From positions 1 through 30,891 of the forward strand of contig JBKOWA010000243.1 in the NCBI GenBank assembly GCA_046724155.1: a stretch of 30,891 nucleotides of DNA, read 5' to 3'. Below are positions 1,790-27,972 of the stretch, one piece after another. This stretch comes from Actinomycetota bacterium (GTDB taxonomy: Bacteria; Actinomycetota; Actinomycetes; Mycobacteriales; JACQDL01). Positions within the stretch are counted from its first letter, which is position 1. Each line of letters begins with the position of its first letter. The notes below the pieces were generated by a model. That model was given only the letters and a program-made list of their open reading frames with translations. It ran no database searches and was not told where the DNA came from. A program made the position numbers and the translations under genes.

Positions 1790-2521
1790 TCACGGCCGGA
1801 GTGCGGCGGCGCGCAGCTGCTCGTAGTACGGCAGGTGGTAATCGCAGTGGGCCTGCAGCACCGGGTTCGCGGCGACCACTTCAGCCCGGCTGCCCGCCTC
1901 GCGCGTGAAGCCGGCGGTCCGGCTGGTCGACTCGTGCCACCGGCTGGTCGCCTGCCATTCCGACCGCATACCCGGCTGCCAGCTCAGCGCGTCCGGCAGG
2001 AAGGGGATGCCCACCGCCTGGCAATACGCCTCCACGGTGCCGGCCGGCCGGTCGAGCAGGTCGTCCGAGTCGATCACTACCGGCGTGGTGCCGGTGGCGG
2101 CTCGTACGGCGTTGAAGATCTCGTGCAGCCAGGCGAAGCCGACTTCGTCGCGGCCAAGGTCCGGGTTGAGCTTGTAGTGCGACGCGATGGCCTCGACCGG
2201 GTGGCGGATGATGAAGGTGTGTGTCGCGGCCGCAAGGAAGGCCTGGTCGGCGAGCAGCGCCGGGTAGTGGAAGTCCGTGGTGTCCTTGAAGAACACCGGC
2301 TTCTCCGCCGCGATGGCACGCAGCGCCGCGAGCACGTCCTGCTCGGTGCGCGCGACCCGGTCGCCGACCTTCACCTCGCCGAAGTCGACCACTTGCGAGA
2401 ACGGCTCGTGCACGACGACGCGGTCGTCCCGCTCCGCCATCATCCGCGCGAACGCGGTGGAGCGGCAGCGCGGCGCGCTCCACAGTGCGAGCACCGGGAT
2501 CCGCTCTGGCCTGTGCTCCAC
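1790..2521 (-). CDS. Sulfotransferase-family protein (P-loop-like, PAPS-dependent)
   Basis: LALWSAPRCRSTAF (5'-phosphosulfate loop), VVHEPF, VFFKD, FIIRHPVEAIAS, VVIDSDDLL, YCQAVGIPF. GTG at 2521 follows a GGAAGGGG RBS. Confidence 0.8.
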   Translation of the reverse strand: MEHRPERIPVLALWSAPRCRSTAFARMMAERDDRVVVHEPFSQVVDFGEVKVGDRVARTEQDVLAALRAIAAEKPVFFKDTTDFHYPALLADQAFLAAATHTFIIRHPVEAIASHYKLNPDLGRDEVGFAWLHEIFNAVRAATGTTPVVIDSDDLLDRPAGTVEAYCQAVGIPFLPDALSWQPGMRSEWQATSRWHESTSRTAGFTREAGSRAEVVAANPVLQAHCDYHLPYYEQLRAAALRP

Positions 2522-2621
2522 GGTTCCCCTTCCCTCTGGCGCGACTGGTGCACCAGGCGGAAAGCGCGGTGAACTACCGGGGCACGTAGTCGGAATTCGG
2601 TCAAGACTAGCACGGGCGGCG

Positions 2622-2747
2622 CCCGGGCGGGGTAAGCAAAATACGTAGCAGCGGGGCGCGAAGTCAACGCAATGCGTCCCGGCGGATGAGCTTGTCGCGG
2701 ACGCGCATGGTGTCGGCGTACCCGTAGCGTCCCTTTCGGCGCGGCAG
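2622..2747. promoter_or_regulatory. Divergent promoter region element, duplicated (inverted) at 15461-15586
   Basis: On the - strand TTGACT-N18-TATTTT faces the sulfotransferase. The palindrome ACGCA-A-TGCGT (2667-2677) abuts the -35. TGAGCTTGTCG at 2687-2697. Confidence 0.6.
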
Positions 2748-2794
2748 TTCATTTGTGCCGCCTGGTCAACCGGTGGCCCTACTGCGGAGGTCAC

Positions 2795-3673
2795 GTGTCA
2801 TCGACACCAGCGCACCCGGGTGCCGGGAGGATCGCCGTACTCGCCAGCCGGGTCGGCGCGGACGAGAAACGGCTGTTCGACGCACTCGGCCGGCGCGGTG
2901 TCCCCTTCGACCACGTCGACACGCGCGGACAGTGGTTCCTGGCCGGGCAGTGTGACCTGGCCTGGAGTCTCGTGCTGAACCGGGAGATCGGCCAGGTCCG
3001 TGCGGCATACGCAGCCCGCTGCCTCGCCTCGGCGGGAGTCGAGGTGGTCAACAACGCGGACGCGACCGAGGTGTGCGGTGACAAATGGCGCACCACGATG
3101 GCACTGCAGGCGGCCGGGGTTGCGACACCACGCACCGCGCTCGGCCTCACCCCGAAGGCCGCGCTGGCCGCGCTGGACTCCATCGGCTATCCGGCGGTGG
3201 TCAAACCACTGGTCGGCTCGTGGGGTCGGCTGGTGGTTCGGCTGCCCGACCGCGCCGCTGCGGAAGGTGTGCTCGAGTACGTCGCCGCGCTGCCCGGCCC
3301 GCAGTCGCACCTCGGGTACGTGCAGGAACTGGTCGACAAGCCCCGCCGGGACATCAGGGCGATCGTGGTCGGTGGCGACCTGCTGGGCGCCGTCTACCGG
3401 ACGGGTGAGCTGTGGCGCACCAACGTGGCGCTCGGCGCGCGGACCCAGCCGTGCGAGGCGACACCGGAGATCACCAAGCTGTCGGTCGACGCTGCCGCCG
3501 CCGTCGGCGCCGACATCGCCGGCGTCGACCTGGTCGAGGACCGCGACGGCCGGCCGCTGGTGCTGGAGGTCAACCACCGGGTCGAGTTCACCGGCTTCCA
3601 GACCGCGCTCGCCGACCGGGTCGATGTCGCGGACCGCATCGTCGAACACCTACTGGAACGAGCGCAACGATGA
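2795..3673 (+). CDS. lysX: LysX/RimK-family ATP-grasp ligase (loads glutamate on the amino-group carrier protein)
   Basis: CGDKWRTTMAL, PAVVKPLVGSWGRLV, YVQELVDKPRRDIR, WRTNVALG, VLEVNHRVEF. GGAGG RBS before GTG 2795; lysW is in the same cluster. Confidence 0.9.
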   Translation: MSSTPAHPGAGRIAVLASRVGADEKRLFDALGRRGVPFDHVDTRGQWFLAGQCDLAWSLVLNREIGQVRAAYAARCLASAGVEVVNNADATEVCGDKWRTTMALQAAGVATPRTALGLTPKAALAALDSIGYPAVVKPLVGSWGRLVVRLPDRAAAEGVLEYVAALPGPQSHLGYVQELVDKPRRDIRAIVVGGDLLGAVYRTGELWRTNVALGARTQPCEATPEITKLSVDAAAAVGADIAGVDLVEDRDGRPLVLEVNHRVEFTGFQTALADRVDVADRIVEHLLERAQR

Positions 3674-4758
3674 ACCGGGCCTTCACTTCGTCCGGCGATG
3701 TCACCGAGACGTACGCCGTCGGGCTGCTGCGCGGGATGCTGGAGATCCCTTCCTCGTCCTACCAGGAGCGCGCGCTGGCCGACTTCCTGGCCGAGGCGAT
3801 GGCGGACCTGGGGTTCCGGGCGCACATCGACGTGGTGGGCAACGTCATCGGCGTGATCGAACGCGGCGACGGCCCGACACTGATGCTGCTGGGGCACCTG
3901 GACACCATCCCGGGCCAGCTCCCGGTCCGCTCCGAGGACGGCAGGCTCTACGGCCGCGGCGCGGTGGACGCGAAGGGACCGCTCGCGGCGATGATCTGCG
4001 CCGCGGCCAGCGCGGTGGACTTCCCCGGCCGGATCGTGGTGATCGGCGTCGTGGAGGAGGAGACCCCGCGCTCCCGTGGGGCGATGGCGATCCGAGCCAC
4101 CCATGACCGGCCGGACGCGCTGATCGTCGGCGAACCGAGCGGCTGGTCGAGCGTGGTGCTCGGCTACAAGGGCAAGCTCGACCTGCGCTACACCGTCAAG
4201 TGCCCTGCCACCCACCCGAGCAACCCGGCGCCGAAGGCGTCCGAACTGGCCGTCGGCTGCTGGGCCGCGCTGGTCGACCTGCTCGGGCCGGACGCCGGCC
4301 ACGACGTGTTCGCCCGGCCGGGCGCGACGCTCTGCCGGCTCAACGCCGATCTGACCTCGGCGACGGCGGACCTCAGCGTCCGCACCCCACCGGGATTCGA
4401 CGTCGACACGCTGGTGCGCAGGCTGCGTGACCGCCTGCCGGTCGGCGAACTCGAAGTGCTGAACTCGGTGGCGGCCTGCCGGGTGGGCCGGGCCGACCCG
4501 GCGGTCCGCGCGCTGGTGTCCGGTATCCGGCGGCTGCACGCCCACCCCCGGCTGCTGGTGAAGACAGCCACCTCGGACATGAACACCCTCGCCGAGGTCT
4601 GGGACATGCCGATGGCGACCTACGGCCCAGGCGACAGCAGGCTCGATCACGCCGACACCGAGCACATCATGCTGTCGGACTACCTGCGAGGCATCGACGT
4701 GCTGTCCATTGCCGTCTCGGAGCTCGCGCCCTGCCCGCCCGCTCGGACAACCGGGTGA
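3670..4758 (+). CDS. lysK: LysK/ArgE-like M20 hydrolase (releases product from LysW)
   Basis: LLGHLDT, LYGRGAVDAKGP, VEEE, IVGEPSG, YGPGDSRLDH. ATGA overlap with the lysX stop. Confidence 0.88.
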   Translation: MNRAFTSSGDVTETYAVGLLRGMLEIPSSSYQERALADFLAEAMADLGFRAHIDVVGNVIGVIERGDGPTLMLLGHLDTIPGQLPVRSEDGRLYGRGAVDAKGPLAAMICAAASAVDFPGRIVVIGVVEEETPRSRGAMAIRATHDRPDALIVGEPSGWSSVVLGYKGKLDLRYTVKCPATHPSNPAPKASELAVGCWAALVDLLGPDAGHDVFARPGATLCRLNADLTSATADLSVRTPPGFDVDTLVRRLRDRLPVGELEVLNSVAACRVGRADPAVRALVSGIRRLHAHPRLLVKTATSDMNTLAEVWDMPMATYGPGDSRLDHADTEHIMLSDYLRGIDVLSIAVSELAPCPPARTTG

Positions 4759-4790
4759 CCGGTGCGCCGCTTCCCGAAAGGAGTCTGTCG

Positions 4791-7700
4791 ATGACCGACA
4801 TGACCCAGCGCCTCGCCGCGTTACCCGCGGAGCGCCGTGCGCAGTTCCTCGCGCAGCTGAGGGCGCAGGCGGAGGACGCGGCCGGACAAGGCCCGACGCC
4901 ACGCGGGGACACCGGTCCGGCACCGCTGTCGCACGCGCAGGAGACCTTGTGGTTCCTCAACCGCCTGGCGCCGGACAGTCCCACCGACAACGTGCCCTGG
5001 TGCACCCGGCTGCAGGGTGACCTGGACGTGAGCGCGTTGCGTTCGGCGCTGGCCGCGGTCGTGGCCAGGCACGAGGCGCTGCGGACCGCGATCGTGGCGC
5101 GCGAGGACGGCCCGGTGCAGGTGGTCGCCCCCGAGGTCCCGGTCGAGCTGCCGCTGGTCGAGGTGGCCGGTGACGACGACGAGCAGCGGCTCGCCGCCGC
5201 GCGGGCGCTCGTCGACGAACGGGTCAGAGCACCGTTCAACCTCGGCAGGATGCCGATGTGGCGCGCGGTGTTGGTCAGGGTGGCGCCGGACGACCACCTG
5301 TTCCTGTTCGACGCGCACCACATCGCGTTCGACGACTGGTCGCTCGGTGTGCTGACCGGCGAGCTGGCCGAGGTCTACCGGTCGCTGCGCGACGGCGACG
5401 AACCGCAGCTGCCCGATCTTCCGGTGCAGTACCCGGACTACGCGGTGTGGCAGCGCGACCGGCTCGACAACGGCGAGCTGGACAAGCTGGCCACGCACTG
5501 GCGGGACACGCTGGCGGGCGCCGAGGTGCTGGAGTTCCCGACCGACCGGCCACGTGGCGACGCGCAGACCTTCGCCGGCGGCGTCGGCAGTTTCACGGTC
5601 GGTCACGAGGGCCTGGAGCGGGCGAGGGAGCTGGCCCGAGAGGAGGGCACGACCCCGTTCGTCGTCCTCGTCGCCGCGTTCTTCACCCTGCTGCACCGCT
5701 ACTGCGGCCTGGACGACCTGGTGATCGGCTCGCCGGACGCGAACCGGCGGCACGACGCCGTGTCATCGATGTTCGGATTCTTCGTCAACATGATGGTGTT
5801 GCGCGGGGACGTCTCCGGCGACCCGACCTTCCGCGAGCTGGTCCAGCGGGTCAGGCGCGTGGCGCTGGACGCGCACGCGCACGGCGACCTGCCGTTCAAC
5901 AAGCTGGTCGACGCCGTGAACCCGACCCGCGACCCCGCACGCTCACCGGTCTTCCAGATCGTGTTCGCCCAGCAGGACGCGGGTACCACGACCGGCCTGC
6001 CCGGACTCGTGACGTCGGAGGAGGCGGTCCGGGTCGGCACCTCCCGGTTCGACATGAGCTGGAACGTGCAGGGGGCAACGGCTCCCGGCGCCGACGCGCT
6101 GCTGGGCATCGACGGGCTGCTGGGCACCGACGCGCTGCTGGGCATCGACGGGCTGCTGGGCATCGAGTTCAACACCGACCTGTTCGACGGCGAGAGCATC
6201 GCCAGGTTCGCCCGGCACTACGACGGACTGCTGCGCACCCTGACCGCCGACCCGGACGCCCCGTTGTCCGCCGCGGACGTGCTGAGCCCGGCGGACAGGG
6301 AGTTCCTCGCCGAGGTCAGCAGCGGGCCGGCGCGGCCGGTACGCGAAACCACTGTCGTGGAACAGTTCGAGGCGCGCGTCGAGGAGTCTCCGGACAGCGT
6401 GGCGGTCGTCGTCGAGGACATCGAGACCAGCTACGCCGAGCTCAACGCCCGGGCGAACCGGCTCGCAGCCCTGCTGCGCGAGCGCGGCGCCGAGCCGGGC
6501 ACGAGGATCGGCCTCTGCCTGCGCAGGAACGTGGACCTGCCGGCAGCGATGCTCGCGGTGCTCAAGACCGGCGCGGCCTACGTGCCACTCGACCCGGCGC
6601 ATCCCCCCGCGCGGGTCGCGGAGATCGCCGCCGACGCGGGTGTACGCGCGGTGGTCGCGCACGCCGACGTCGCCGGGACCGTGAGCGCGGTCACCGCGCC
6701 CGTCGTGGTGCTGGACGACATCCGCGCGGAACTGGCGGCGATGCCCGCCCCAAACCCCCCGCTCGCCGCGAAACCCGGCGGCGTCGCGTACATCATCTAC
6801 ACCTCCGGCAGCACCGGCAGGCCGAAGGGTGTACTGCTCGAACATCGCGGCGTGGTCAACTTCGCCGACTCCACGCGGGACCTGTTCGACCTGACACCGG
6901 ACGACCGGGTGCTCGGGTTCGCGTCGGTCACCTTCGACGTCTCGGTGTTCGAGACGTTCTCCGCGTTGCTGACCGGGGCACGCCTGTGCCTGGCGACCGA
7001 CGACGAACGGCTGTCCATCGACCGGCTCCAGTCGCTGATGGAACGAGCCGGCATCACCGTCATCGACCTGCCGCCGACCGTGATGCCGTTGCTGACGCCG
7101 GAGAGGTTCACCGACCTGCGGATCGCGTTCGTCGGCGGTGAGGCGTTCAGCGGCGAACTGGTGAACCGGTGGAACCGAGGCAGGCGGCTGTTCAACGGCT
7201 ACGGGCCGACCGAGTGCACGGTGACGATGATCGTCGAGGAGTGCGCGGGCACCTGGGACGCCTCGCCGCCGATCGGCCTGCCCATGGCCAACCACGTCGC
7301 GCACGTGCTGGACCGCGAGTTCCGCCAGGTGCCGGTCGGCGTGCCGGGCGAACTGGTGATCGGTGGTGCCGGGCTGGCGCGCGGTTACCTCAACCGCGCC
7401 GAGCTGACCGCGGAGAAGTTCGTCACCGACCCGTTCGGCACCGCGCCGGGCGGGCGGTTGTACCGGACCGGAGACCTGGTGAAGCGGCTGCCGGACGGGC
7501 GGCTGGTCTTCCTCGGCCGGCTCGACCAGCAGGTCAAGATCCGCGGCCTGCGGATCGAGCTGGGCGAGGTGGAGTCGGCGTTGGCCGGCGTCGCCGGAAT
7601 CGGGCCGGTCAGCGTGCAGCCGTGGACCGACGACGCCGGTGACAAGCACCTGGTCGGCTACCTGACGGGCGTCACCGAGCAGCAGGTGCCGGCGGTGCGC

Positions 7701-8177
7701 GAGCATCTCGGCACGCTCCTGCCGTCGTACATGATCCCGTCGTACTTCGTTGTCCTCGACGAACTTCCGCTCACCAGCAGCGGCAAGGTCGACTGGCGCA
7801 GGCTGCCCGCGCCGGACCCGAGCTCGGCGGGCGACGGGTCAGGCGGCGAACCGCGTACCGCGACCGAACGGGTGCTGCTGCGCGAAGTGCTCACCCCGCT
7901 GCTGCGCTACGACCGGCTCGGCGTGCACGACGACTTCTTCCAGGCCGGCGGCAACAGTCTCCAGGCCGCTCAGCTGATGTCGGCGATCAACCGCAGGTTC
8001 GAGGTGGAGATCGCGCTCGCCGACTTCTTCGTCGCACCCACCGTCGCGCACCTGGCCACCATCATCGACACCGTCCGCGCCGCGCGACTCAGTGACGACG
8101 ACCTGCTCGACATGCTGGAGAGCATGTCCGACGAGGAGGCGGTCCGGATGTTCGACGACCTGGACGGCCGGTCATGA
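4791..8177 (+). CDS. Single-module NRPS, C-A-T
   Basis: C domain with LSHAQETLWF, RHEALRT, HHIAFDD (5316-5336). A domain with YIIYTSGSTGRPKG, FDVS, NGYGPTE, GELVIGGAGLARGY, LYRTGDL, QVKIRGLRIELGEVE. T domain FFQAGGNSL (Ser 7956-7958). GAAAGGAG RBS before ATG 4791. Confidence 0.95.
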   Translation: MTDMTQRLAALPAERRAQFLAQLRAQAEDAAGQGPTPRGDTGPAPLSHAQETLWFLNRLAPDSPTDNVPWCTRLQGDLDVSALRSALAAVVARHEALRTAIVAREDGPVQVVAPEVPVELPLVEVAGDDDEQRLAAARALVDERVRAPFNLGRMPMWRAVLVRVAPDDHLFLFDAHHIAFDDWSLGVLTGELAEVYRSLRDGDEPQLPDLPVQYPDYAVWQRDRLDNGELDKLATHWRDTLAGAEVLEFPTDRPRGDAQTFAGGVGSFTVGHEGLERARELAREEGTTPFVVLVAAFFTLLHRYCGLDDLVIGSPDANRRHDAVSSMFGFFVNMMVLRGDVSGDPTFRELVQRVRRVALDAHAHGDLPFNKLVDAVNPTRDPARSPVFQIVFAQQDAGTTTGLPGLVTSEEAVRVGTSRFDMSWNVQGATAPGADALLGIDGLLGTDALLGIDGLLGIEFNTDLFDGESIARFARHYDGLLRTLTADPDAPLSAADVLSPADREFLAEVSSGPARPVRETTVVEQFEARVEESPDSVAVVVEDIETSYAELNARANRLAALLRERGAEPGTRIGLCLRRNVDLPAAMLAVLKTGAAYVPLDPAHPPARVAEIAADAGVRAVVAHADVAGTVSAVTAPVVVLDDIRAELAAMPAPNPPLAAKPGGVAYIIYTSGSTGRPKGVLLEHRGVVNFADSTRDLFDLTPDDRVLGFASVTFDVSVFETFSALLTGARLCLATDDERLSIDRLQSLMERAGITVIDLPPTVMPLLTPERFTDLRIAFVGGEAFSGELVNRWNRGRRLFNGYGPTECTVTMIVEECAGTWDASPPIGLPMANHVAHVLDREFRQVPVGVPGELVIGGAGLARGYLNRAELTAEKFVTDPFGTAPGGRLYRTGDLVKRLPDGRLVFLGRLDQQVKIRGLRIELGEVESALAGVAGIGPVSVQPWTDDAGDKHLVGYLTGVTEQQVPAVREHLGTLLPSYMIPSYFVVLDELPLTSSGKVDWRRLPAPDPSSAGDGSGGEPRTATERVLLREVLTPLLRYDRLGVHDDFFQAGGNSLQAAQLMSAINRRFEVEIALADFFVAPTVAHLATIIDTVRAARLSDDDLLDMLESMSDEEAVRMFDDLDGRS
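6093..6164 (+). repeat. In-frame 4 x 18-nt tandem repeat inside the NRPS C domain
   Basis: GACGCGCTGCTGGGCATC GACGGGCTGCTGGGCACC GACGCGCTGCTGGGCATC GACGGGCTGCTGGGCATC, encoding DALLGI DGLLGT DALLGI DGLLGI. Confidence 0.95.
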
Positions 8178-9070
8178 GCTTCCCGCTGGGGGACCGGGCG
8201 GGCAAGCTGACCGGGCCGCGCCGGGCGCTGCTCGAACGGCTGCTCGCGGACCGTCGCTCGGCCGCCGCGACGACGGACGCGACGGATGGCGGCCGGGCAC
8301 CGGTGCTGATGCGACCACCCGGCCCGGCGCGGGTGATCCTGGTGCACCCGTCAGGCGGTGAGCTGTTCTGCTACATACCGTTGGTCAGGGCGCTGCGCGA
8401 GGGCATCGGTGTGGCCGGGTTCGCCGCCGACCCACGGGATGCCGCCGTGCCTGCCCGGGACGGTATGACGGCGACTGCCACCAGGATCGCGCAGGCACTG
8501 ACCGCGACCGGCTTACCGGAGTCGTACTGCCTGGCCGGCTGGTCCTACGGGGGCGTGCTCGCCTTCGAGATCGCCAGGCAGCTGGAGCGGGATACCGGAC
8601 AACGGCCGCCGGTGGTGCTGCTGGACGCCTCCTACGACGAGGACGCCGTCCCGCTCGACGAGCCGACGGTGCGGCGGCGGTTCGTGCACGACGTCGCCAG
8701 GCTGGCCGGCCGGGACGGTCCGCCGGTGCGCGCGGTGCTGGACGACCGGGCCGCCGGCCTGGTCGACATCAGGGAGACGCTGGCGTCGCTCGAGGTCGAG
8801 CTGGAGCTGAGCGACGACGAGCTGGCCGGCCGCTACGCCGTCTTCCGGGCCTGCGCGCTGGCGTTGCAGTCGTACCGCCCGCCGGGCCCGTACGGCGGGC
8901 CGGTCACCCTGCTGGCCGTCCCGCCCCGCGCCGCCGTGGAAGGGCAGTGGCGGGCGGTGTGCACGGGCCCGTTCCGGAGCGACGACCTGCCCGGCGACCA
9001 CTACACGCTTTTCACCGAACCGGCGTTGAGCCGGATCGTCGCCGAGATCGAACGGACGCTCGCCCCCTGA
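8174..9070 (+). CDS. Stand-alone thioesterase with N-terminal extension
   Basis: LVHPSGG, LAGWSYGG (GxSxG), VVLLDA, PGDHYTL. ATGA overlap with the NRPS stop. Confidence 0.9.
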   Translation: MSFPLGDRAGKLTGPRRALLERLLADRRSAAATTDATDGGRAPVLMRPPGPARVILVHPSGGELFCYIPLVRALREGIGVAGFAADPRDAAVPARDGMTATATRIAQALTATGLPESYCLAGWSYGGVLAFEIARQLERDTGQRPPVVLLDASYDEDAVPLDEPTVRRRFVHDVARLAGRDGPPVRAVLDDRAAGLVDIRETLASLEVELELSDDELAGRYAVFRACALALQSYRPPGPYGGPVTLLAVPPRAAVEGQWRAVCTGPFRSDDLPGDHYTLFTEPALSRIVAEIERTLAP

Positions 9071-11322: not shown

Positions 11323-12036
11323 TCAGCTCGCGCGCAGGTCCTCTTGCGGCCCGGGCTTCTCCTCGCCGGGAGCGCGTCCGGCCGGCTGGATGAGCCCGGA
11401 CCGGTACGCCAGTGACACGAGCTGGGCGCGGTCGCGGACACCGAGCTTGGTGCGCACCCGGTAGAGATGGGTACGAACGGTGGCCACGCCGATGGTCAGC
11501 GCGCGGGCCACCTCCTCGGTGGACATGCCCCGCGCCACCATCCGGGTCACCTCCCGCTCCCGCGGGGTCAGCTCGGTCACCTCCGGGCACGGCGCGGACT
11601 CCAGGGCGTCCGGCTGCTCGCGGAACCAGGTGACCAGGCGTTGCGCGACGGCCGGCGCGAGCATGGTTCGGCCCACGGCCGCCGCCCGGATCGCGGTGAC
11701 CAGCTCCGGTGTGCTCGCGTCCTTGCCGAGCAGGCAGCTCGCGCCGGCGTGCAGCACGTCGCTGACCGTCTTGTCGGCGTCGGATCCGGTGAACACCACG
11801 ATGTTGGGCCGGGCGTCCTCTTTGCTGAGCCGGCGGATCATCTCCAGGCCGGAAATGGTCCGCAGGCTCAGATCGGTGACCACGACATCGGGCCGGGCGG
11901 TGCGCACCAGGACGATGGCCTCCATGCCGTTGTCGGTCGTGTCGGTCACGTCGATGTCCGGCACGGCATCGAGTAGCGTCCGCAAGCCGTCCCTGACAAC
12001 TGGCAGCTCGTCGCAGATGAGTACCCGAATAGTCAT
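11323..12036 (-). CDS. NarL/LuxR-family response regulator (REC + HTH), no adjacent kinase
   Basis: IRVLICDE, PDVVVTD (phospho-Asp), LGKDA, ELTPREREVTRMVARGMSTEEVARALTIGVATVRTH. Confidence 0.92.
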   Translation of the reverse strand: MTIRVLICDELPVVRDGLRTLLDAVPDIDVTDTTDNGMEAIVLVRTARPDVVVTDLSLRTISGLEMIRRLSKEDARPNIVVFTGSDADKTVSDVLHAGASCLLGKDASTPELVTAIRAAAVGRTMLAPAVAQRLVTWFREQPDALESAPCPEVTELTPREREVTRMVARGMSTEEVARALTIGVATVRTHLYRVRTKLGVRDRAQLVSLAYRSGLIQPAGRAPGEEKPGPQEDLRAS

Positions 12037-18321: not shown

Positions 18322-18411
18322 ATGCCTGCTCCGCAGAATGTCGGCGTGGTCGGCTCGTATGCGTCGATGCGGTTGCTCGCGGAAGAGCTGAAGGCGGGAG
18401 TCGCGGCATGA
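18322..18411 (+). CDS. 29-aa small ORF or gene remnant
   Basis: MPAPQNVGVVGSYASMRLLAEELKAGVAA*. AAGG just upstream; the stop overlaps the ATG of the next gene (ATGA). Confidence 0.3.
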   Translation: MPAPQNVGVVGSYASMRLLAEELKAGVAA

Positions 18412-19729: not shown

Positions 19730-21025
19730 TCACCTGGCAGGGAACGTCTTTCCTTGTCGAGGGTTGTCGTCGTAGAGGTAGTCGCGTTCGATTTGCCGCA
19801 GCTTCTCGTAGTCGGCGCGAATCTCTTCCGGATCATCGGAGATGAGAAATATCCACCCCGGCTGGGTCGCGACATCGATCGTTCGCGGAAGCGGGTGCCC
19901 TTCCGGATGCGCCATGAGGGTATGGGCGTAGGACGGTAGCGCGCGGATGGCGGCCATCGTCTCGTGGGACGGGACCACGCCGTGGTCCCTCGGGTTGATC
20001 AGAGACACGTCACGTGGGTGCTGCAGCAGCTGGTACACGGTGGTTGGCAGGCGGTTGAACTCGTCCGGGTCCACCACGGCCAGCGTGAAGAGCTCTATCT
20101 GGTTGGTGCCGAAACAGCGCGTGTTGATCTCCGGAACCTGGCCACCGCCGAAGCGTGCGGCACACTCGACGAGCACCGGCCCGCCGGCGGTCAGCATGAC
20201 CTCGGTGTGGGCGGCCCAGTTGCGGATCTCCAGGGCGTCGAGCACCTGGTGAGTGTAGGACTCCAGCTTTTTGGCGACCGGGTCGTCCGGCGCCAGCGGC
20301 TCGTCGTAGTCGTAGATGATGTTGCCGCCGGCGAGCCGAATCTTGTAGTACCGCCAGATCTCGACGGTGTGATGCCTGCCGTCACGACTGACCGTGTTGA
20401 CGAAGTACTCTTCCCCGGCCAGGAACTCCTGCGCGAGCACCACCGTATTGGGCTTCCCGTGACGGTCGGTACTGGTCATGATCTTTTCGTGGACGGCGCG
20501 AACCTGCTCCGGAGACGAACATGCCGCGACGTTGTCCGTGCCGGAGCTGGCGACCGGTTTCAGGACGACCGGGTAGCCTGCGGTCGTCTCGGCCCACGCG
20601 ATGATGTCGTCGGCATCGGATGCGACTGTGGTGGCCGCGTGTGCCAGTCCGGCATCGCGCAGTGCCAGGACCATGTCATATTTGTTGCGTCGGGCCGTCG
20701 GTCGGCTCATCCCGTTGCCGGGAGTGTCGAGCTCGGCGGAGAGCTGGTCGGCCAGCTCGACGCCCGACTCCCCGGCGGCGATCACGTAGCTGACCCCACG
20801 CGCACGCAGCGCGGCCGCCGTGGCCACGACGTCACCGTCATGGCGGACATTGTCGACGAAACCATCGGGGATCGGCAGCCGAGCCAGGTGAACGTCGGGG
20901 CTCGGCGACTGGACGTGCACACACTCCACGTCGTGCCGGTGCAGCGCGGGCAGCAGGTGGCGCCCCATCGAGTACGCGTCGACCAACGCCGCTCGTGTCG
21001 TCTGCGCGCGAGAACTGGTTGGCAT
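19730..21025 (-). CDS. ATP-grasp ligase 2 (NikS/L-amino-acid ligase-like)
   Basis: LVDAYSMG, RRNKYDM, YPVVLKPVASSGTDNV, QEFLAGEEYFVN, AHTEVML, LVECAARFGGG. Confidence 0.88.
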   Translation of the reverse strand: MPTSSRAQTTRAALVDAYSMGRHLLPALHRHDVECVHVQSPSPDVHLARLPIPDGFVDNVRHDGDVVATAAALRARGVSYVIAAGESGVELADQLSAELDTPGNGMSRPTARRNKYDMVLALRDAGLAHAATTVASDADDIIAWAETTAGYPVVLKPVASSGTDNVAACSSPEQVRAVHEKIMTSTDRHGKPNTVVLAQEFLAGEEYFVNTVSRDGRHHTVEIWRYYKIRLAGGNIIYDYDEPLAPDDPVAKKLESYTHQVLDALEIRNWAAHTEVMLTAGGPVLVECAARFGGGQVPEINTRCFGTNQIELFTLAVVDPDEFNRLPTTVYQLLQHPRDVSLINPRDHGVVPSHETMAAIRALPSYAHTLMAHPEGHPLPRTIDVATQPGWIFLISDDPEEIRADYEKLRQIERDYLYDDNPRQGKTFPAR

Positions 21026-21077: not shown

Positions 21078-21923
21078 TTATGCCGAATTCGTTGTCACCG
21101 AATTCGTTGTCACCGTGGTGCCGGACCCGGCCAGCGCTCGGCTGACCGGGCTGGGTACCCGCCCGTCCGCTATGCGTACCGACGCCACTCCGCCGGCCAG
21201 TGCCTCACGTGCCGCAACGAGTTTGAGTGCCATGCCACCGCCGGCGAACCGGCCCGGCGCGCCGGTCGCCGGCACCTCGTAGGTACTCAGCACGCTGGTG
21301 TCGTCGTCGGGATCGGCGAGTACCCCTGGTGCGCCGGTCAGCAGCACCAGCTGGTCAGCACCGAGTGCCGCCGCGAGCGCTGCCGCGACGCGGTCGGCGT
21401 CGACGTTCACCGGGTGGTCGTGCTCGTCGATCGCGGGCGGTGAGACCACCGGCACGAAGCCGGACCGCAGCAGGGTTTCCGCCAGTTCGGTGCGCACCTC
21501 GCTGAGCCGGCCGCTGAGGTTGTCCCGGACCAGTGTCGTCCGACCATCCACAACGGACCGGACGGCGGACTTGCGGCGGGCGCGCAGCATGCCGCCGTCC
21601 AGGCCGGTGAGGCCGACCGCGGGCACCCCGAGCCGGGACAGCTCCGCGACGATGCTTGGTTTGACCCCACCGGCCAGCGCGAGGATGACCACCTCCAGCG
21701 TCGCCGGGTCGGTGTACCTGGTGGACACCTTGTCCGGGGCGACGAGGGTGCGTTGCGGGACACCGAGTCTCCCGGCCAGTCGGGCGATCTCCCCAGAACC
21801 TCCGTGCACCAGGAGAACCGACTGCCCGGCACGGACGAGCCCGGCGACGTCGGCGCAGATGCCCGCGGCGTCGACGGCCGGGTTGCCGCCGCACTTGACG
21901 ACTGTCAGCGGTCTGGCGGTCAC
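21078..21923 (-). CDS. lysZ: [LysW]-glutamate/aminoadipate kinase (LysZ/ArgB family)
   Basis: VVKCGG, LVHGGSGEI, RYTD, GLTGLDG, NVDADRVAA, GGMALKL. GGAGA RBS before GTG 21923. Confidence 0.9.
   Translation of the reverse strand: MTARPLTVVKCGGNPAVDAAGICADVAGLVRAGQSVLLVHGGSGEIARLAGRLGVPQRTLVAPDKVSTRYTDPATLEVVILALAGGVKPSIVAELSRLGVPAVGLTGLDGGMLRARRKSAVRSVVDGRTTLVRDNLSGRLSEVRTELAETLLRSGFVPVVSPPAIDEHDHPVNVDADRVAAALAAALGADQLVLLTGAPGVLADPDDDTSVLSTYEVPATGAPGRFAGGGMALKLVAAREALAGGVASVRIADGRVPSPVSRALAGSGTTVTTNSVTTNSA
21083..21115. repeat. 15-bp tandem duplication at the lysZ 3' end
   Basis: CCGAATTCGTTGTCA x2 + CCG, giving C-terminal VTTNS-VTTNS. Confidence 0.9.
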
Positions 21924-21946: not shown

Positions 21947-22972
21947 TCAGACGGGATGCAGGCCGGGGAAGGACAGGCCGAGTGCTTCCGGCCAGCCCAT
22001 GCGGATGTTCAGGCACTGGACCGCATTGCCCGCGCCGCCCTTCATGAGGTTGTCCAGTGCCGCGATGGTCACCAGCCGTCCGGCCTCCTCGTCGACGGCG
22101 TACCCGACATCGCAGAAGTTCGATCCCAGCAGGATCTTCGGCTCCGGGTAACGGAAAATGCCGCGCTGGTGGGCGACCAGACGGACGAACGGCTCGTTCT
22201 GGTACTGCTCGCGGAACGCCCTGCGCACCGCCGACTTGTTCACACCGGGGCGCAGCGTGGCGTGACAGACCGTCTGCACACCTCGTACCGCCTCGACTCC
22301 GGTCGCGGTCATGGTGGCCGGAATGCCGAGGTGCCGGGAGATCTCCGCCTCGTGCCGGTGCCCGGTCGGTGCGAACACCCGCATCGCCCCGCTGCGCTCG
22401 GCATGCAGGTTCGCCTCGCCCGCGGTGGCACCGGAACCGCTGGACCCGGTGCGCGCGTCGAGCCGGGCCATCGGCTCGACCAGGCCCCGGGCCACGAGTG
22501 GGTACAGCGCGAGCACGCCCGCCACCGCCATGCAGCCGGGCACGCTGACCAGGTCGGCGCTGCGCAGGCTCTCCCTGTGCAGTTCGGGTATCCCGGGGAC
22601 GAAGTCGCCGAGCAGGTGCGGCGCGGCGTGCGCGTTCCCGTAGTAGCGCTGGTAGACCTCGGTGTCGTCCAGCCGGAAGTCCCCGGTGAGGTCGATGACC
22701 TGCTTGGCCGGTCCGATCCAGCGGTCGATCTGTGTCATGGCGGCGCGGTGCGGCGTGGCCAGGAACACCGTGTCGCACTCATCCACCTCATCGGCCGAAC
22801 AGAACAGCAGGTCGGTGGCGGACCGCAGGTTCGGATGGACACCGTCGACCCGCTTGCCGGGGAACCGGGACGACACCGCGGCCGTCACCTCGACCTCGGG
22901 GTGGCCGATGAGTAGTCGCAGCAGCTCACCGCCGATGTATCCGGCCGCACCGACCACCGCGACGCGGATCAC
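21947..22972 (-). CDS. lysY: [LysW]-glutamyl/aminoadipyl-phosphate reductase (LysY/ArgC family)
   Basis: VAVVGAAGYIGGELLRLL, FLATPH, IDLTGDFRL, VPGCMA, SSGSG, LDNLMKGGAGNAVQCLN. Alternative start at 22990. Confidence 0.92.
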   Translation of the reverse strand: MIRVAVVGAAGYIGGELLRLLIGHPEVEVTAAVSSRFPGKRVDGVHPNLRSATDLLFCSADEVDECDTVFLATPHRAAMTQIDRWIGPAKQVIDLTGDFRLDDTEVYQRYYGNAHAAPHLLGDFVPGIPELHRESLRSADLVSVPGCMAVAGVLALYPLVARGLVEPMARLDARTGSSGSGATAGEANLHAERSGAMRVFAPTGHRHEAEISRHLGIPATMTATGVEAVRGVQTVCHATLRPGVNKSAVRRAFREQYQNEPFVRLVAHQRGIFRYPEPKILLGSNFCDVGYAVDEEAGRLVTIAALDNLMKGGAGNAVQCLNIRMGWPEALGLSFPGLHPV

Positions 22973-23012: not shown

Positions 23013-23186
23013 CTACTCTCCCCAGTCCTCTTCGACCTCGGGCGCGAGGGCGAGCACCACCGGGCTCAACGCCACGATCTCCAGTTCGTTTCGGCAGCCC
23101 GCACACTCGACGATCTCGTTGAGCCGCACCGAGTGGCCGATCTGCACCTCGTCCTCGCACTCCGGGCAGGTCTGCGCTGTGGTCAT
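23013..23186 (-). CDS. lysW: Amino-group carrier protein LysW/AmCP, 57 aa
   Basis: CPEC...CAGC zinc ribbon and the invariant C-terminal EDWGE. GAAAGGA RBS. Confidence 0.96.
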   Translation of the reverse strand: MTTAQTCPECEDEVQIGHSVRLNEIVECAGCRNELEIVALSPVVLALAPEVEEDWGE

Positions 23187-24151
23187 GTGGTGGTGTCCTT
23201 TCGGTCGGTCGTCCGGGAGCGGGCAGCCGTGTCGAGGGCGGTGCGGACCGTCCGCACGACCCGCTCCGCGGTGAGGTCGTAGTGCGTGACGAGGTGTTCC
23301 TGGCTGCCGACCGCGTCGACGAACTGATCCGGCATGCCCAGCCTCAACACCCTCGTGGGCGCTGCCTCCGCCAGTGCTTCGGCCACCGCGCCGCCGAGGC
23401 CGCCGTTGCGCCAGTGCTCTTCGACAGTCACGACGAGCGTGGCCGGTCGCGCCGCGGCCACCAGTGTCTCCGTGTCGAGCGGCCGCAGCGTGTGCAGGTT
23501 CAGCACGGTGGTTTCGATGCCTTGCCCGGCAAGGACATCCGCTGCGGCGAGGCAGGCGAGCACCGGGTACGGGCCGCAGCACGCGAGCACCACGTCGCCG
23601 CCCTGCCGCAGCGTCTGTGCCTGCCCGATGACCGGGGGAGGGGATGCGGGCAGCGGCGGTGACGGTTTGCGGCCGAGCCGGACGTAGAGCGGTCCGGCCA
23701 GGCTCAGGCTCTGCTCGACGAACGCCTCCGTGGCGGCGGCGTCGGCAGGCACCACCACCGTCATTCCCGGCAGCACCCGTAGCACGGCGAGGTCTTCCAG
23801 GGCCTGGTGAGTCGGACCGAGGTGGCCCGCGGCGAGCCCGCCGTGGGTGGCCATGATGCGGACCGGCAACCGGTTGTAGGCGATGTCGATCTTGACGGCT
23901 TCCAGCGCGCGGGATGCGGCGAAGGCGGCCATCGTGTTGACGAACGGAATCCGCCCGCACGCGGCCAGCCCGGCTGCTATGCCCATCAGGTTGTGCTCGG
24001 CGATGCCGAGGTTGAGGTACTGCTCGCCGGCCGCTGTGGCGTGCTCCGCGCTGAACAGGCCGGTGTCGGTGTCCAGGCAGATCAGGTCGGGATGCCGGTT
24101 CAGCAAGGGAAGCAGACAGTCCCGGTAGGCCTCTCGGGTCGAGCGGCTCAT
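23183..24151 (-). CDS. Transketolase C-terminal subunit (pyrimidine-binding + C domain)
   Basis: NLGIAEHNLMGIAAGLA, HLGPTHQALED, PLYVRLGR, RPLD, VTVEEH, GGLG. 4-nt overlaps with both neighbours. Confidence 0.92.
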   Translation of the reverse strand: MSRSTREAYRDCLLPLLNRHPDLICLDTDTGLFSAEHATAAGEQYLNLGIAEHNLMGIAAGLAACGRIPFVNTMAAFAASRALEAVKIDIAYNRLPVRIMATHGGLAAGHLGPTHQALEDLAVLRVLPGMTVVVPADAAATEAFVEQSLSLAGPLYVRLGRKPSPPLPASPPPVIGQAQTLRQGGDVVLACCGPYPVLACLAAADVLAGQGIETTVLNLHTLRPLDTETLVAAARPATLVVTVEEHWRNGGLGGAVAEALAEAAPTRVLRLGMPDQFVDAVGSQEHLVTHYDLTAERVVRTVRTALDTAARSRTTDRKDTTT

Positions 24152-24990
24152 CGGGCGGGATCCGTGGTCCGCAGCGCGCCGATCGCCCGTGCGTGGTTGC
24201 GCTTCGACAGCGTCACGTAGTGGCTGGCTGCCCGGCCGGCGAGGAACGGGAGCCCGTGGCCCTTGACCGTGCGGGCGATCAGCACGCTCGGCCGGCCCGG
24301 CTCCCACGGCGCGGCGGCGAGGTGGTCTGCCAGCTGGGCTGCGTCGTGGCCGTCCACGTCGCGGACCGCCCAGCCGAAACCGCGCCAGCGGTCGGCCAGT
24401 GGCTCCATCGGCGCGACTCGCTCGGTGGAACCGGTCAGCTGCAGCCCGTTGCGGTCCACCACGGCGACCAGCCGGTCCAGCCGCAGCGACGCGGCCGCGA
24501 TCGCCGCCTCCCACACCGAACCTTCCTGGAGCTCGCCGTCGCCGAGCAGCACGAAGCTGCGCGAGTCACGGCCGGCGTACCGGGTGGCCAGCGCGAACCC
24601 GCAGGCCAGCGCGAGACCGTGGCCGAGGGACCCGGTCGGCAGCTCCACGCCGGGCACCGCGCGTACCGGATGGCCCATCAGCCTGCTGCCGGGCCGGCCG
24701 TATCCGGCGAGTTCCTCGACCGGAAGGAAACCCCGTTCGGCCAGCGTCGCGTACAGGGCAACGGCGGCGTGGCCCTTGCTGAGCAGGAAACGGTCGCGGG
24801 CCGGGTCGTCGGGCCGCTGCGGGTCCACGTTCAGCACCGAGAAGTACAACGCGGTGAGCACCTCGACACAGGAGAACGCGCCGCCGAGATGGCCGCCTTC
24901 CGGTCCCGCACACATGTCGACGACGTGCGAGCGGATGCGTGCGGAGACCGACTCCAGCGTGTCCCGCGCCGGGACCGGGGCGGCGGTCAT
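24148..24990 (-). CDS. Transketolase N-terminal (ThDP-binding) subunit
   Basis: [59 protein letters not shown]. Confidence 0.92.
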
Positions 24991-26282
24991 GACGCTGCCG
25001 CCGCAAGGGTGGCCACCATGTCGGTGTTGGCCCACACCTTCTCGAAGGCGTCGGCGTAGAGGCGGAGCAGGTCGCCCGACCCTGGATGGAGGTGACGTTT
25101 CTGGAGGGTCAGCGAGTCGGCGATGACCGCGCGGGCCACCGGGTAGCCCGCACCCGCCACCGGTCCGGGTGCGCCGGTCACGGACCAGGGGTAGCCCGCG
25201 CCGAAGCCGATCCGGTCGACGAACACCTTCTGGTCGGGCAGCGGCATGAGCTGGTACTGCGACATCGGCACGCCCTCGGCGCGCAGCAGCCGCCGCAGGG
25301 CTGAGCGCAGGGCCTCCGGCCGCACCGCGTCCAGACCGAACGCGGCCGGGTCGAACCGGAACCGCAGGATGTGCCAGGCGTGGGTGGTGTGCGGGCGCGC
25401 GGCCGGCACGCGCAGGCCGGGCAGCGCCGCGAGCCGCGCGAGGAAGTCGCCGACGTTGCGTTGCCGCGCGCGTTCGTAGTCGTCGAACCGGGTGAGCTGC
25501 GCGTCGGCGAACGCGGCCTGGATGGCGTTCATCTTGTGGTTCCAGCCGAGGCCGTAGGACACGTAGTCGCGCTCGCGGCCGCTCTCGATCACCTCGCCGA
25601 ACTGCCTGCCCCTGCGCACCGACCCGGCCAGCTCGGCGTCGCGGGTCACGAGCAGGCCGCCTTCACCGCAGGTGGGGATGTTCTTGGTGACCTGGAGGCT
25701 GAACGCACCCGCGTCGCCGATCCCACCGACCGGCCGCCCGCGGTGGGTCGCGCCCGGGGCCTGCGCGGCGTCCTCGACCACGGCGAGGCCGTGCCTGCCC
25801 GCGATGTCGGTGAGCCGGTCCATGTCGGCGGGTGCGCCGTGCAGGTGCACCGGGATGATCGCCGCGGTCCTGGCGGTGATCCGGCGCTCCACGTCGTCCG
25901 GGTCGAGGTCGAAGGTGACCGGGTCGACGTCGGCGAACACGGGAACGGCCATCTGGTGCAGGGGCGCGAGCCCGGTGGCGATGAAGCTGAGCGCGGGCAC
26001 GATCACCTCGTCTCCCGGCCCGACACCGAGCGCGGCCAACGCGAGGGACAGTGCGGCGGTGCCGGTGGACACCGCGACGCAGTGGTCGAAGCCGAACCGT
26101 TGCGCCCAGTGCTCCTCGAGGGCGGAAACCGGGTTCGCACCGTCCGAGTTGGACACAAGTCTGGCGCTGTCGAGTGCGTCGATGACGGCCTTGCGGTCTT
26201 CGTCCTCGACCAGCGGCCAGTCCACGCGGCGCCGGTCCTTCGGCACGGCTGCGGTGCCGCCGAACGCTGCCAGCCTGCTCAT
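24987..26282 (-). CDS. DegT/DnrJ/EryC1/StrS-family PLP aminotransferase
   Basis: [49 protein letters not shown] (Schiff-base Lys), GEGG. Confidence 0.92.
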
Positions 26283-26321
26283 CGCTGTCCTCTCGACATG
26301 GTCACGGTGGCCGAACCACCG

Positions 26322-27374
26322 TCACAGTCGCGCCGCTGCCGCGTCCACGGCGTCGACCGCACCCGCGTACCTGCCGCGCAGCACGGTGGCGTGGTGCGCG
26401 ATGTCGGCTGAGACCGCACGGGGATCGCCGAGACCGTGCGCGCCGGTGATCCGCAGCCCGGTCCACGCGTGCGCGACAGACTCGACCGCCCGTCCGGCCC
26501 CGGCAAGCGCCGGATCGCCCCATTCCCGGCCGCAGCGGCGCAGAAGCTCACCGTGCAGTGCGGCCTGCGCCTGCATGCCCCAGCCGAACGAGTACAGCTC
26601 GCGTAGCGCGGTGGCGTCCCCGGCACGGCACCGGTCGAGGAGCTCCCCGGCGAACTCGTCGAATCCGGCGAGACCGGTGCGGGCCGAGGTGGCCGTGGTG
26701 AAGGCGGCGACGTCGGTGCGCAGGAAACCGCCGAGCAGTTCGGGGGTCAGCGGCGGGGGCGGGGCGTCGAGCCGGACGTCGAGACCGCGCCTGCCGATCT
26801 GCGAGTCACTGAAGAACGCGTCCTGGACGTCGGTGGGGTTGGTCGAACCCCAGCTGCGCAGGAACGCCTCGATCGGGACGGCACCGCGGAACGCGGGCGG
26901 CATCGCGTCCGAGACGTACACCAGCCCGCGGACCTCGTCCAGGCCGTAGACCACCACGAGGTGCGCGGCGTGCACGTCGCCGTACGCGGGCCGGAACGGC
27001 AGGTAGAAGTTGTCCACCGCGGCGATGACCAGCCGGTCGTCGGCCAACGTCCCGCGCACCTCCCGCCAGGGGTCGTCCTCATCGGCGGGCTGCCACCAGC
27101 GCGAGTGCAGTTCGTGGTGCGGTGCCAGGGCGGCACCGAGGTCAGCGCCGCCGGACTCCTCGGCAGGGCACGGGTAGTAGAACTCCTCGGACCTGACATC
27201 GCCGGGCAGGTGCAGGAACCGCCAGCCCGCTCCGAGCACGGTCAGCGGGTCGGCGCCGGCCCGTGCCAGCAGCGAGCCGAACGTGGCCTGAAGGCAGCTG
27301 ATCAGGTCGCGGTACCACCACTCTGGCTCCGGCCCGGTGACCAGGTACGTCCGTGCCGTCACGTCACTGGTCAT
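26322..27374 (-). CDS. BtrH-like (papain-fold) protein, probable AziU3/Vzb11-type aziridine-forming subunit
   Basis: SCLQ near the N-terminus, VDNFYLPFRPAYGDVHAAHLVVVYGLD, VYVSD. Overlaps the upstream gene stop by 11 nt. The AziU3 assignment rests on fold family and context. Confidence 0.72.
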   Translation of the reverse strand: MTSDVTARTYLVTGPEPEWWYRDLISCLQATFGSLLARAGADPLTVLGAGWRFLHLPGDVRSEEFYYPCPAEESGGADLGAALAPHHELHSRWWQPADEDDPWREVRGTLADDRLVIAAVDNFYLPFRPAYGDVHAAHLVVVYGLDEVRGLVYVSDAMPPAFRGAVPIEAFLRSWGSTNPTDVQDAFFSDSQIGRRGLDVRLDAPPPPLTPELLGGFLRTDVAAFTTATSARTGLAGFDEFAGELLDRCRAGDATALRELYSFGWGMQAQAALHGELLRRCGREWGDPALAGAGRAVESVAHAWTGLRITGAHGLGDPRAVSADIAHHATVLRGRYAGAVDAVDAAAARL

Positions 27375-27972
27375 GCTCGACCTCCGCCCGCTGCAGGGTG
27401 ACCGCGAAGACATGCATCGCGATGTTGCGGGGCAGCCGGACGCCGGCCAGGCCGGCACGCCGGGTGACCGGCACCCGCTGCGCCCACATGACCGCGGACA
27501 CGCCCCGCTGCACGTGGTGCGGATAGTGCATGACCGGGGTCTCAAACGCCTTGAGTTCGCCGAACCATGCCGGCGCCGCCCAGAAGTCGGAGACCCGCAG
27601 CGGTTCCGCGTCGACCGAGCCGTCGTCGAAGTTCAGCTCGACGGTGTCCTCGCTACGCCGTTCCGCCGCCGCCAGCACGTGCACCCAGTCGTAACGACCC
27701 GCCGGCACGGTGAGGAACTGTCCGGCGCAGCGGACGTTGTCCGGCCCGTCGCTGACCGGAGGGAACAGGAAGGGAACGCCGGCCACGTGGACGAGGCTTT
27801 CGCCCGCGGGCAGGTACTCGGCGGCAAACGAGTTCCTCCACACGTTGAACTCTCCCGCTTTGGTCTCCGTCGCCGCGGTGATGGCCGTGTTGTTGCGATG
27901 GCCGGAGATGTCGACCGGGTCGTACAGTCGGGTCATGGCGGAGGGCACCAGGATGTTCGTCAAGTGATCCAC
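27364..27972 (-). CDS. Beta-sandwich-like hypothetical protein, probable AziU2/Vzb10-type partner
   Basis: Clean 202-aa ORF with high-GC codon usage (GEFNVWRNSF, DNVRCAGQ, AAAERRSED, MHYPHHVQ), coupled to the BtrH-like gene. Alternative start ATG 27936. Function from context only. Confidence 0.6.
   Translation of the reverse strand: MDHLTNILVPSAMTRLYDPVDISGHRNNTAITAATETKAGEFNVWRNSFAAEYLPAGESLVHVAGVPFLFPPVSDGPDNVRCAGQFLTVPAGRYDWVHVLAAAERRSEDTVELNFDDGSVDAEPLRVSDFWAAPAWFGELKAFETPVMHYPHHVQRGVSAVMWAQRVPVTRRAGLAGVRLPRNIAMHVFAVTLQRAEVEHDQ

Follow-up and report, generated by a model that had tools for sequence, protein, structure and literature searches.

The window analysed here is the entire contig JBKOWA010000243.1 (30,891 nucleotides; Actinomycetota bacterium, assembly GCA_046724155.1), and it carries, at positions 1790–27972, a cluster of 23 genes related to the ficellomycin (fic) locus of Streptomyces ficellus. 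The contig is the longest one of a fragmented metagenome-assembled genome (MAG; 2.76 Mb, 617 contigs, 65.5% complete) and consists of actinomycete DNA with 70–72% G+C. The genes were called by a frame analysis using the G+C content of the third codon positions (GC3), combined with Pfam, NCBIfam, and PDB searches. The over-extended starts of the longest open reading frames (ORFs), found for the sulfotransferase, the amidinotransferase, the short-chain dehydrogenase/reductase (SDR), and the aminotransferase, were trimmed to the lengths of the orthologues. The E-values for the gene identifications were all far beyond chance, and all 23 genes were found to be intact, with orthologue-like lengths and strong GC3 signals. 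An initial annotation of this DNA had named the genes of the region from the sequence; every gene that it named was confirmed by these analyses, and the LuxR-family regulator, which it did not list, was also found (Table 1).

Table 1. Genes and other features of the window. Percentages are protein identities to the fic orthologue of S. ficellus unless stated otherwise.
Positions	Strand	Feature	Evidence
1790–2521	−	Sulfotransferase (Sulfotransfer_5), 243 aa; putative sulfation of the 7-OH of DADH	Pfam; 79%
2795–3673	+	LysX-type ATP-grasp enzyme, loads glutamate onto LysW	RimK and LysX_preATP_grasp domains; 86%
3670–4758	+	LysK-type M20 hydrolase, frees the amino acid from LysW	Peptidase_M20; 89%
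4755–8177	+	Nonribosomal peptide synthetase (NRPS), single C-A-T module	Pfam; 79%; T-domain GGNS
8174–9070	+	Thioesterase (TE), separate gene	Pfam; fic orthologue fused to NRPS
9081–10235	+	Acyl-CoA dehydrogenase (ACAD)-like protein 1	Pfam; 87%
10237–11319	+	ACAD-like protein 2, only C-terminal domain recognisable	Pfam; 78%
11323–12036	−	LuxR-family response regulator, putative cluster regulator	Response_reg and GerE; 87%
12424–13464	+	StrB1-like L-arginine amidinotransferase, 346 aa	PDB 1BWD, E 3.7e-170; 86.5%
13493–14518	−	Agmatinase-family ureohydrolase	Arginase Pfam, E 4.4e-85
14621–15391	−	SDR, 256 aa; putative 5-OH oxidation	Pfam; 86.5%
15461–15810		Rearrangement scars in the SDR/aminotransferase spacer	Promoter-region copy and aziU2 fragment
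15829–17028	+	Class III aminotransferase, 399 aa; putative 5-oxo to 5-amino conversion	Pfam; 82%
17068–18318	+	Major facilitator superfamily (MFS) exporter	Pfam; 73% to Solwaraspora orthologue
18408–19658	+	L-amino-acid ligase B (ATP-grasp)	PDB 4WD3 L-amino acid ligase, E 3.7e-14; NCBIfam ATP-grasp hits
19730–21025	−	L-amino-acid ligase C (DdaF/PRK07206-like ATP-grasp)	PDB 30vh L-amino acid ligase, E 5.6e-64
21078–21923	−	LysZ-type amino-acid kinase	Pfam; 89%
21947–22972	−	LysY-type semialdehyde dehydrogenase	Pfam; 90%
23013–23186	−	LysW amino-group carrier protein, zinc ribbon	Pfam Zn_ribbon_LysW; 86%
23183–24151	−	Transketolase, C-terminal half	Pfam; 89%
24148–24990	−	Transketolase, N-terminal (thiamine diphosphate-binding) half	Pfam; 88%
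24987–26282	−	Fic25 orthologue, DegT aminotransferase forming carrier-bound 5S,6S-DADH	PDB match; 88.9%
26322–27374	−	AziU3-like subunit (BtrH_N), sulfate-eliminating aziridine synthase	PDB 7WUW_C, E 6.9e-74; 85%
27364–27972	−	AziU2-like subunit	PDB 7WUW_A, E 2.7e-53; 82%
3–887		AadA-like nucleotidyltransferase, 5′-truncated at the contig edge	AadA_C and NTP_transf_2
1070–1411	+	Gp49/HigB-like toxin	
1424–1723	+	Helix-turn-helix (HTH) antitoxin	
28984–29660		PIN toxin and MazE/AbrB antitoxin	Right flank

The cluster encodes the AmCP (amino-group carrier protein) LysW, which has 57 aa, the zinc-ribbon cysteines CPEC...CAGC, and the C-terminal sequence ...EEDWGE (Zn_ribbon_LysW, E 1.7e-12). The genes for LysX, LysZ, LysY, LysK, the split transketolase, and the DegT aminotransferase are found together in this one locus, each with 86–90% identity to its fic orthologue. 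In related systems, the AmCP and its enzymes form 2,6-diamino-5,7-dihydroxyheptanoic acid (DADH), and their roles, as well as the subsequent sulfate elimination, have been described (PMC11726168, PMC9570651). The DegT aminotransferase matched PDB entries 8GYH, 8GYI, and 8GYJ over its full length (E 1.7e-255), and 8GYJ is Fic25, the maker of AmCP-bound 5S,6S-DADH for ficellomycin (PMC11726168). The full-length identity of 88.9% suggests that the window enzyme is an aminotransferase of the 5S,6S-DADH (Fic25) type. We rejected the identity of about 90% to Fic25 as sufficient proof of a ficellomycin cluster: the DADH aminotransferase is conserved at 80–93% across very many actinomycetes of many genera, and at 83% in the s56-p1 producer. 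The whole S. ficellus locus was therefore compared gene by gene, using all window proteins against the 54 kb around the Fic25 gene (CP034279.1). As a separate observation, a genome of the same GTDB family (G001:C135:1915-3195) has a DegT aminotransferase with 51% identity, which possibly belongs to a different AmCP/DADH-type cluster.

This comparison clarified that 19 of the 23 window genes are orthologous to fic genes (CP034279.1, ~1.36–1.39 Mb), with identities of 77–90% and a mean of 85%: those for the sulfotransferase, LysX, LysK, LysZ, LysY, LysW, the NRPS, the TE, both ACADs, the LuxR regulator, the amidinotransferase, the SDR, the class III aminotransferase, both transketolase halves, Fic25, and the AziU3- and AziU2-like subunits. 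The two loci share the code of the adenylation domain, the guanidinylation trio, and the single NRPS, and both leave the peptide bond to one or more ATP-grasp ligases. The differences are as follows. One is that the fic locus has a single BacD/BL00235-like ligase (ligase A), whereas the window has two other ligases, B and C. Another is that cysC, cysD, and cysN are embedded in the fic locus, whereas none of them is present on the contig; other members of the family likewise have no cysCDN in the cluster. Furthermore, the fic locus lacks a ureohydrolase and has a different MFS exporter, whereas the window has the agmatinase-like ureohydrolase. The last difference is that the TE is fused to the NRPS in fic but is separate in the window, where the gene order is also rearranged and scarred. 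As judged from this gene content, the window is a member of the family with respect to the warhead, and it is not a gene-for-gene ficellomycin cluster.

The start of the sulfotransferase was set to the GTG at 2521, which has a ribosome-binding site and fits the homologues of 243–244 aa. The AziU3- and AziU2-like genes are adjacent and overlap by 11 nt, and the actual start of the latter is probably at 27948 or 27963. Concerning the guanidinylation genes, the amidinotransferase was identified through its PDB match, and the Pfam search gave no match for it.

The single NRPS module consists of condensation (C), adenylation (A), and thiolation (T) domains. The A-domain code reads DVFDAVGVTK in all four clusters compared, those of the window, fic, and the family members L035 and L037, the latter a Pseudonocardiaceae MAG; it was read by means of motif anchors (GrsA numbering) with no reference alignment, so that the identity between the clusters is solid and the absolute residue assignment slightly less so. 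Position 278 of the code is Asp, and the code does not resemble one for Val. The C-domain motif (NRPS residues ~186–192; 5280–5300) reads HHIAFDD in the window, HRLVCDG in fic, HHIVFDG in L035, and HQIGFDD in the Pseudonocardiaceae MAG. The catalytic second His of the HHxxxDG motif thus varies across the family and is missing in the ficellomycin producer itself, which argues that a ligase, and not the C domain, forms the peptide bond. The motif sequences suggest that the C domain is non-condensing and that the NRPS serves as a tether. The TGA stop of the NRPS gene overlaps the ATG start of the TE gene (ATGA, 8174–8177). In S. ficellus, L035, and the Pseudonocardiaceae MAG, the two form one C-A-T-TE protein, and among these clusters only the window has them split. 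The NRPS/TE linker (8096–8260) shows an insertion and a frame change in the window. An 18-nt tandem repeat at 6087–6158 was also seen; it encodes (D/A)ALLG(I/T)DGLLG at the end of the C domain, ahead of the A domain.

The ligases and the exporter set the window apart from fic. Ligase B has identities of 77% to its Solwaraspora counterpart, 66% to that of the Pseudonocardiaceae MAG, and ~25% to fic ligase A, while ligase C has 82% to that of the Pseudonocardiaceae MAG, 75% to that of Solwaraspora, and 26% to fic ligase A. Ligases B and C are ~25% identical to each other. Ligase C scored 358 bits with PRK07206, above the cut-off, and 217 bits with the DdaF model, below the cut-off of 840. Fic ligase A is composed of ATPgrasp_N and LAL_C2 domains, and its nearest solved relatives are BL00235 and BacD. 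A type-A ligase was not found in the window or in the whole MAG; the best results were partial matches of 27% and 36% to ligases C and B, respectively. The window MFS exporter had no match in the fic 54-kb region, and it co-varies with ligase B, with an orthologue in Solwaraspora and none in fic. A literature search for work on the ficellomycin ligase or ATP-grasp enzyme yielded nothing relevant.

To place these ligases in the family, the ligase content was compared in ~20 fic-like clusters. Clusters of this kind are widespread: they occur in Streptomyces, Micromonosporaceae, Pseudonocardiaceae, Streptosporangiaceae, Herbidospora, and metagenomes. Their canonical order consists of two divergent blocks, one with ACAD2, ACAD1, NRPS-TE, LysK, and LysX, and the other with the sulfotransferase, AziU2, AziU3, Fic25, transketolase N and C, LysW, LysY, LysZ, the aminotransferase, ligase A, the MFS exporter, and the SDR. 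Ligase A was found in S. ficellus, in L035, and in 13 named genomes. Orthologues of ligase B (at least 66% identity) occur in three of the ~20 clusters: the window, Solwaraspora sp. WMMB335 (NZ_JBMHMF010000001.1, ~5.771–5.795 Mb), and the Pseudonocardiaceae MAG (CDHSYD010000172.1). In all of these, ligase B is accompanied by ligase C and never by ligase A, while the remaining clusters examined carry ligase A; A and B are thus mutually exclusive. The window belongs to a minority subtype, "B+C", in which the ligase was exchanged along with the exporter, as would be expected if the amino acid or amino acids that are attached, and consequently the exported product, differ.

The two other B+C clusters resemble the window to different extents. 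Solwaraspora shares with it the block of aminotransferase, MFS exporter, and ligase B (85%, 73%, and 77%, respectively). Both clusters lack an in-cluster ureohydrolase and differ from the window in gene order, with identities to the window of 66–94%, and the Pseudonocardiaceae MAG cluster, unlike the window, has a third ATP-grasp enzyme (D) and a DUF1062 gene. We know of no product for either of them. Several genomes, probably including that of Micromonospora halophytica, contain an A-like ligase (70–73% identity to fic ligase A) next to one of type C; in several Streptomyces genomes, such a pair lies on a contig other than that of the main fic-like cluster. The two ligases may form a portable module or belong to a second cluster. 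As for the source organism, the RpoB fragment of the MAG is closest to those of "Mycobacteriales bacterium" MAGs (90–91%) and has 84–85% identity to RpoB of S. ficellus, Actinophytocola, Solwaraspora, and Herbidospora. This level is the same as that of the cluster proteins, and horizontal spread of the cluster is therefore implied.

The ureohydrolase lies between the amidinotransferase and the SDR of the cluster and scored 184.7 bits with TIGR01230 (SpeB agmatinase), against an equivalog cut-off of 174.3. Neither the fic 54-kb region nor any of the fetched fic-like loci contained an orthologue, the window being the only one to carry the gene. Homologues with ~70% identity exist in four cluster-bearing genomes, apparently outside the fetched cluster loci, and thousands with 79–86% identity exist in metagenomes, one of which (86%) is situated among decarboxylase, aminotransferase, and amine-oxidase genes, a context of polyamine catabolism. 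With no hit in the fetched loci and the nearest homologues in polyamine operons, the gene was rejected as a conserved component of the cluster. A 99%-identical ureohydrolase was found on a 3.4-kb contig from another sample, next to the same neighbours, a 346-aa protein and a LuxR regulator, so that these genes are truly adjacent in that population. The enzyme may trim a guanidino group, either of the warhead or of an Arg- or agmatine-like unit that is added; alternatively, the gene may have been captured from the host.

These genes can be arranged into a plausible pathway. By orthology to characterised enzymes, LysX would join glutamate to the C-terminal EDWGE of LysW, LysZ and LysY would convert it to the semialdehyde, and the split transketolase would add two carbons. 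The Fic25 orthologue would then transaminate the product to AmCP-bound 5S,6S-DADH, and LysK would release it. The 7-OH would be activated by the sulfotransferase, and AziU3/AziU2 would close the aziridine through sulfate elimination. The later steps are more tentative: the SDR, the class III aminotransferase, and the StrB1-like amidinotransferase may replace the 5-OH with a guanidino group, and the A and T domains of the NRPS may load the resulting basic amino acid, because Asp occupies position 278 of the code, which does not resemble one for Val. The ACAD pair may desaturate the carrier-bound amino acid so that the aziridine nitrogen closes the pyrrolidine ring, and the TE may free 2-(4-guanidino-1-azabicyclo[3.1.0]hex-2-yl)glycine. 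Finally, ligase B, replacing fic ligase A, and ligase C, an add-on that is also found in other family members, would attach one or two amino acids, and export would be the task of the co-inherited MFS protein. The guanidinylated azabicyclohexane amino acid predicted in this way is the known building block of ficellomycin.

The initial annotation had predicted an AmCP-made DADH, sulfation and elimination to the aziridine, guanidinylation, and extension by ATP-grasp ligases instead of further NRPS modules, and this scheme agrees with the published work (PMC11726168, PMC9570651). The guanidinylated 1-azabicyclo[3.1.0]hexane amino acid that it proposed is also the same as the ficellomycin warhead. 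On the basis of the orthologous genes, the warhead is very probably the guanidino-azabicyclohexane amino acid of ficellomycin, and the ligase content indicates that the attached amino acid or amino acids probably differ from those of ficellomycin. We consider the explanation as a whole to be likely, namely, that the cluster is a complete, intact member of the fic family which would combine the same warhead amino acid with different peptide ligases to give a ficellomycin congener, a di- or tripeptide of the "Trojan horse" kind.

Several points weigh against this explanation. One is the supply of sulfate donor: the contig has no genes for 3′-phosphoadenosine-5′-phosphosulfate, and adenosine-5′-phosphosulfate kinase was not found in the MAG, which is 65.5% complete. 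Another is that we infer the roles of the NRPS, the ACADs, the SDR, the aminotransferase, and the amidinotransferase. The ureohydrolase resembles a housekeeping agmatinase and is present in one lineage only. In addition, the contig comes from a fragmented MAG, and within its rearranged order an independent assembly backs only the ureohydrolase-amidinotransferase-LuxR junction. The last point is that the specificity of the ligases is unreadable from their sequences: ligase B could be a valine ligase, and the product could be ficellomycin itself.

This last point leads to the alternative that survives best. If ligase B were an isofunctional valine ligase, the cluster would make ficellomycin, and ligase C, the ureohydrolase, and the MFS exporter would be accessory, serving salvage, immunity, or minor congeners. 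The entire warhead pathway and the NRPS code match those of S. ficellus, and product-neutral, non-orthologous swaps of small ligases are known in natural-product clusters, which counts for this alternative. Nevertheless, ligases B and C have only ~25% identity to ligase A and belong to other subfamilies of L-amino-acid ligases; ligase B is always found together with ligase C, and two of its three clusters also contain an MFS exporter of its own; and the mutual exclusion of A and B in ~20 clusters is typical of a product-changing module swap. We therefore judge the production of ficellomycin itself to be unlikely.

Returning to the congener with different peptide ligases, we lean somewhat toward a more specific form of it: the B+C clusters of the window, Solwaraspora, and the Pseudonocardiaceae MAG would lead to an undescribed congener with a different amino acid or with two, and the agmatinase-type hydrolase of the window lineage would further edit a guanidino group. 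Such editing can be likened, as an analogy, to the proclavaminate amidinohydrolase of clavulanate biosynthesis. If this is true, the fic family would be a natural combinatorial set in which swaps of ligase and exporter alter the delivery part of an aziridine antibiotic. Very few natural 1-azabicyclo[3.1.0]hexane antibiotics are known that alkylate DNA; ficellomycin is one of them and has activity against resistant Staphylococcus aureus (PMC6804068). The fic family appears to have been widely transferred with nearly invariant warhead genes and exchanged peptide ligases and exporters, which points to undiscovered congeners, and these may differ in uptake and spectrum. The rarer B+C ligase set is present in a cultured strain, Solwaraspora sp. 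WMMB335.

The rearranged gene order can be traced to scars in the SDR/aminotransferase spacer, which is 437 bp long. Two inverted repeats were found there. One (I2; 2649–2747 vs 15461–15559, 99 nt, 84%) has its source in the divergent promoter region between the sulfotransferase and LysX genes, and the other (I1; 15643–15810 vs 27418–27585, 168 nt, 96%) has its source inside aziU2. In Solwaraspora, aziU2 and aziU3 sit exactly at the position of this spacer. The spacer repeats and this placement indicate that duplication and inversion within the genome gave rise, recently, to the window order. The copied promoter region is possibly a re-used bidirectional promoter. The window order resembles a circular permutation of that of Solwaraspora, and a circular contig or plasmid was considered on this ground; it was rejected, as the contig has no terminal overlap and no replication genes.

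The same scars bear on the second alternative, in which the locus is decaying or chimeric and makes nothing, either broken down after horizontal transfer or produced by an artefact of MAG assembly or binning. The non-canonical order, the aziU2 fragment with the duplicated promoter piece, the NRPS/TE split, and the lack of cysCDN are all compatible with it, as is the fragmentation of the MAG. The tetranucleotide and GC comparison between the contig and the remaining MAG was unremarkable, and composition cannot settle the binning. However, all 23 genes are intact with strong GC3 signals, and the NRPS/TE split is a clean ATGA. The repeat copies differ from each other (96% and 84%) and hence are not assembly collapses. 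Furthermore, the ureohydrolase-amidinotransferase-LuxR contig of another sample is 99% identical, and Solwaraspora carries the same set of genes on a closed 8-Mb contig, arranged in still another order. A decaying or chimeric locus is accordingly highly improbable.

In its strongest reading, the initial annotation would have an assembly logic for which no characterised precedent exists, leading to a new class of aziridine antibiotic. This reading is scarcely tenable: 19 of the 23 genes have their orthologues in fic, the fic architecture already places an ATP-grasp ligase next to a single NRPS module, and clusters of the family are common in Streptomyces, Micromonosporaceae, Pseudonocardiaceae, and Streptosporangiaceae. 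In its favour, neither the ureohydrolase nor ligase B or C has a counterpart in the fic locus. The statement that the gene combination was not recognisable among characterised clusters was wrong: it is that of the fic locus, which the annotation itself had named as a comparator. The window does not match that locus gene for gene, however. The non-orthologous ligases and exporter, the added ureohydrolase, and the lack of cysCDN make a new congener plausible, and a new class is unsupported. What is known here is the ficellomycin-type warhead pathway; what is new is a ligase-swapped variant cluster, a reasonable lead for a congener, with no new enzymology or compound class.

Other systems resemble the window in part. 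To our knowledge, vazabitide lacks a guanidinylation set. The vazabitide A (vzb) cluster, compared by its description only, likewise forms DADH by way of an AmCP and leads to an azabicyclo amino acid (PMC11726168, PMC9570651). Vzb9 leads to 5R,6R-DADH and Fic25 to 5S,6S-DADH (PMC11726168), and the window aminotransferase has 89% identity to the latter, the 5S,6S enzyme. A vzb-like cluster builds its peptide part with several NRPS genes (PMC12690601). The azinomycin B (azi) system shares the AziU3/AziU2 pair (PDB 7WUW/8GS1) as well as the DADH intermediate and the sulfate elimination (PMC9570651); azinomycin B, however, is a large hybrid of polyketide synthase and NRPS origin with a naphthoate and an epoxide, and none of those genes is present in the window. 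In the "Trojan horse" peptides made with bacilysin BacD, rhizocticin RizA, and dapdiamide DdaF, a warhead amino acid is likewise capped by ATP-grasp ligases. This likeness is an analogy of logic and not membership, the scores being far below the equivalog cut-offs.

Outside the cluster, toxin-antitoxin modules bracket it on both sides. A minus-strand ORF at 1277–1756, next to the sulfotransferase, was dismissed as a possible member of the cluster and is probably not a gene, since the plus strand encodes the toxin and the antitoxin there. AlkZ-like glycosylases have been reported in some ficellomycin- and vazabitide-like clusters (PMC9040887); none was found in the window, and an AlkZ-like gene (PF06224) is present elsewhere in the MAG (contig C20, 4851–5861). 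In addition to the PIN toxin module, the right flank (28409–30742) encodes an HTH_26 protein and a weak second PIN-like ORF, and the segment at 29813–29887 is a truncated copy, with 83% identity, of the start of the left-flank toxin gene.

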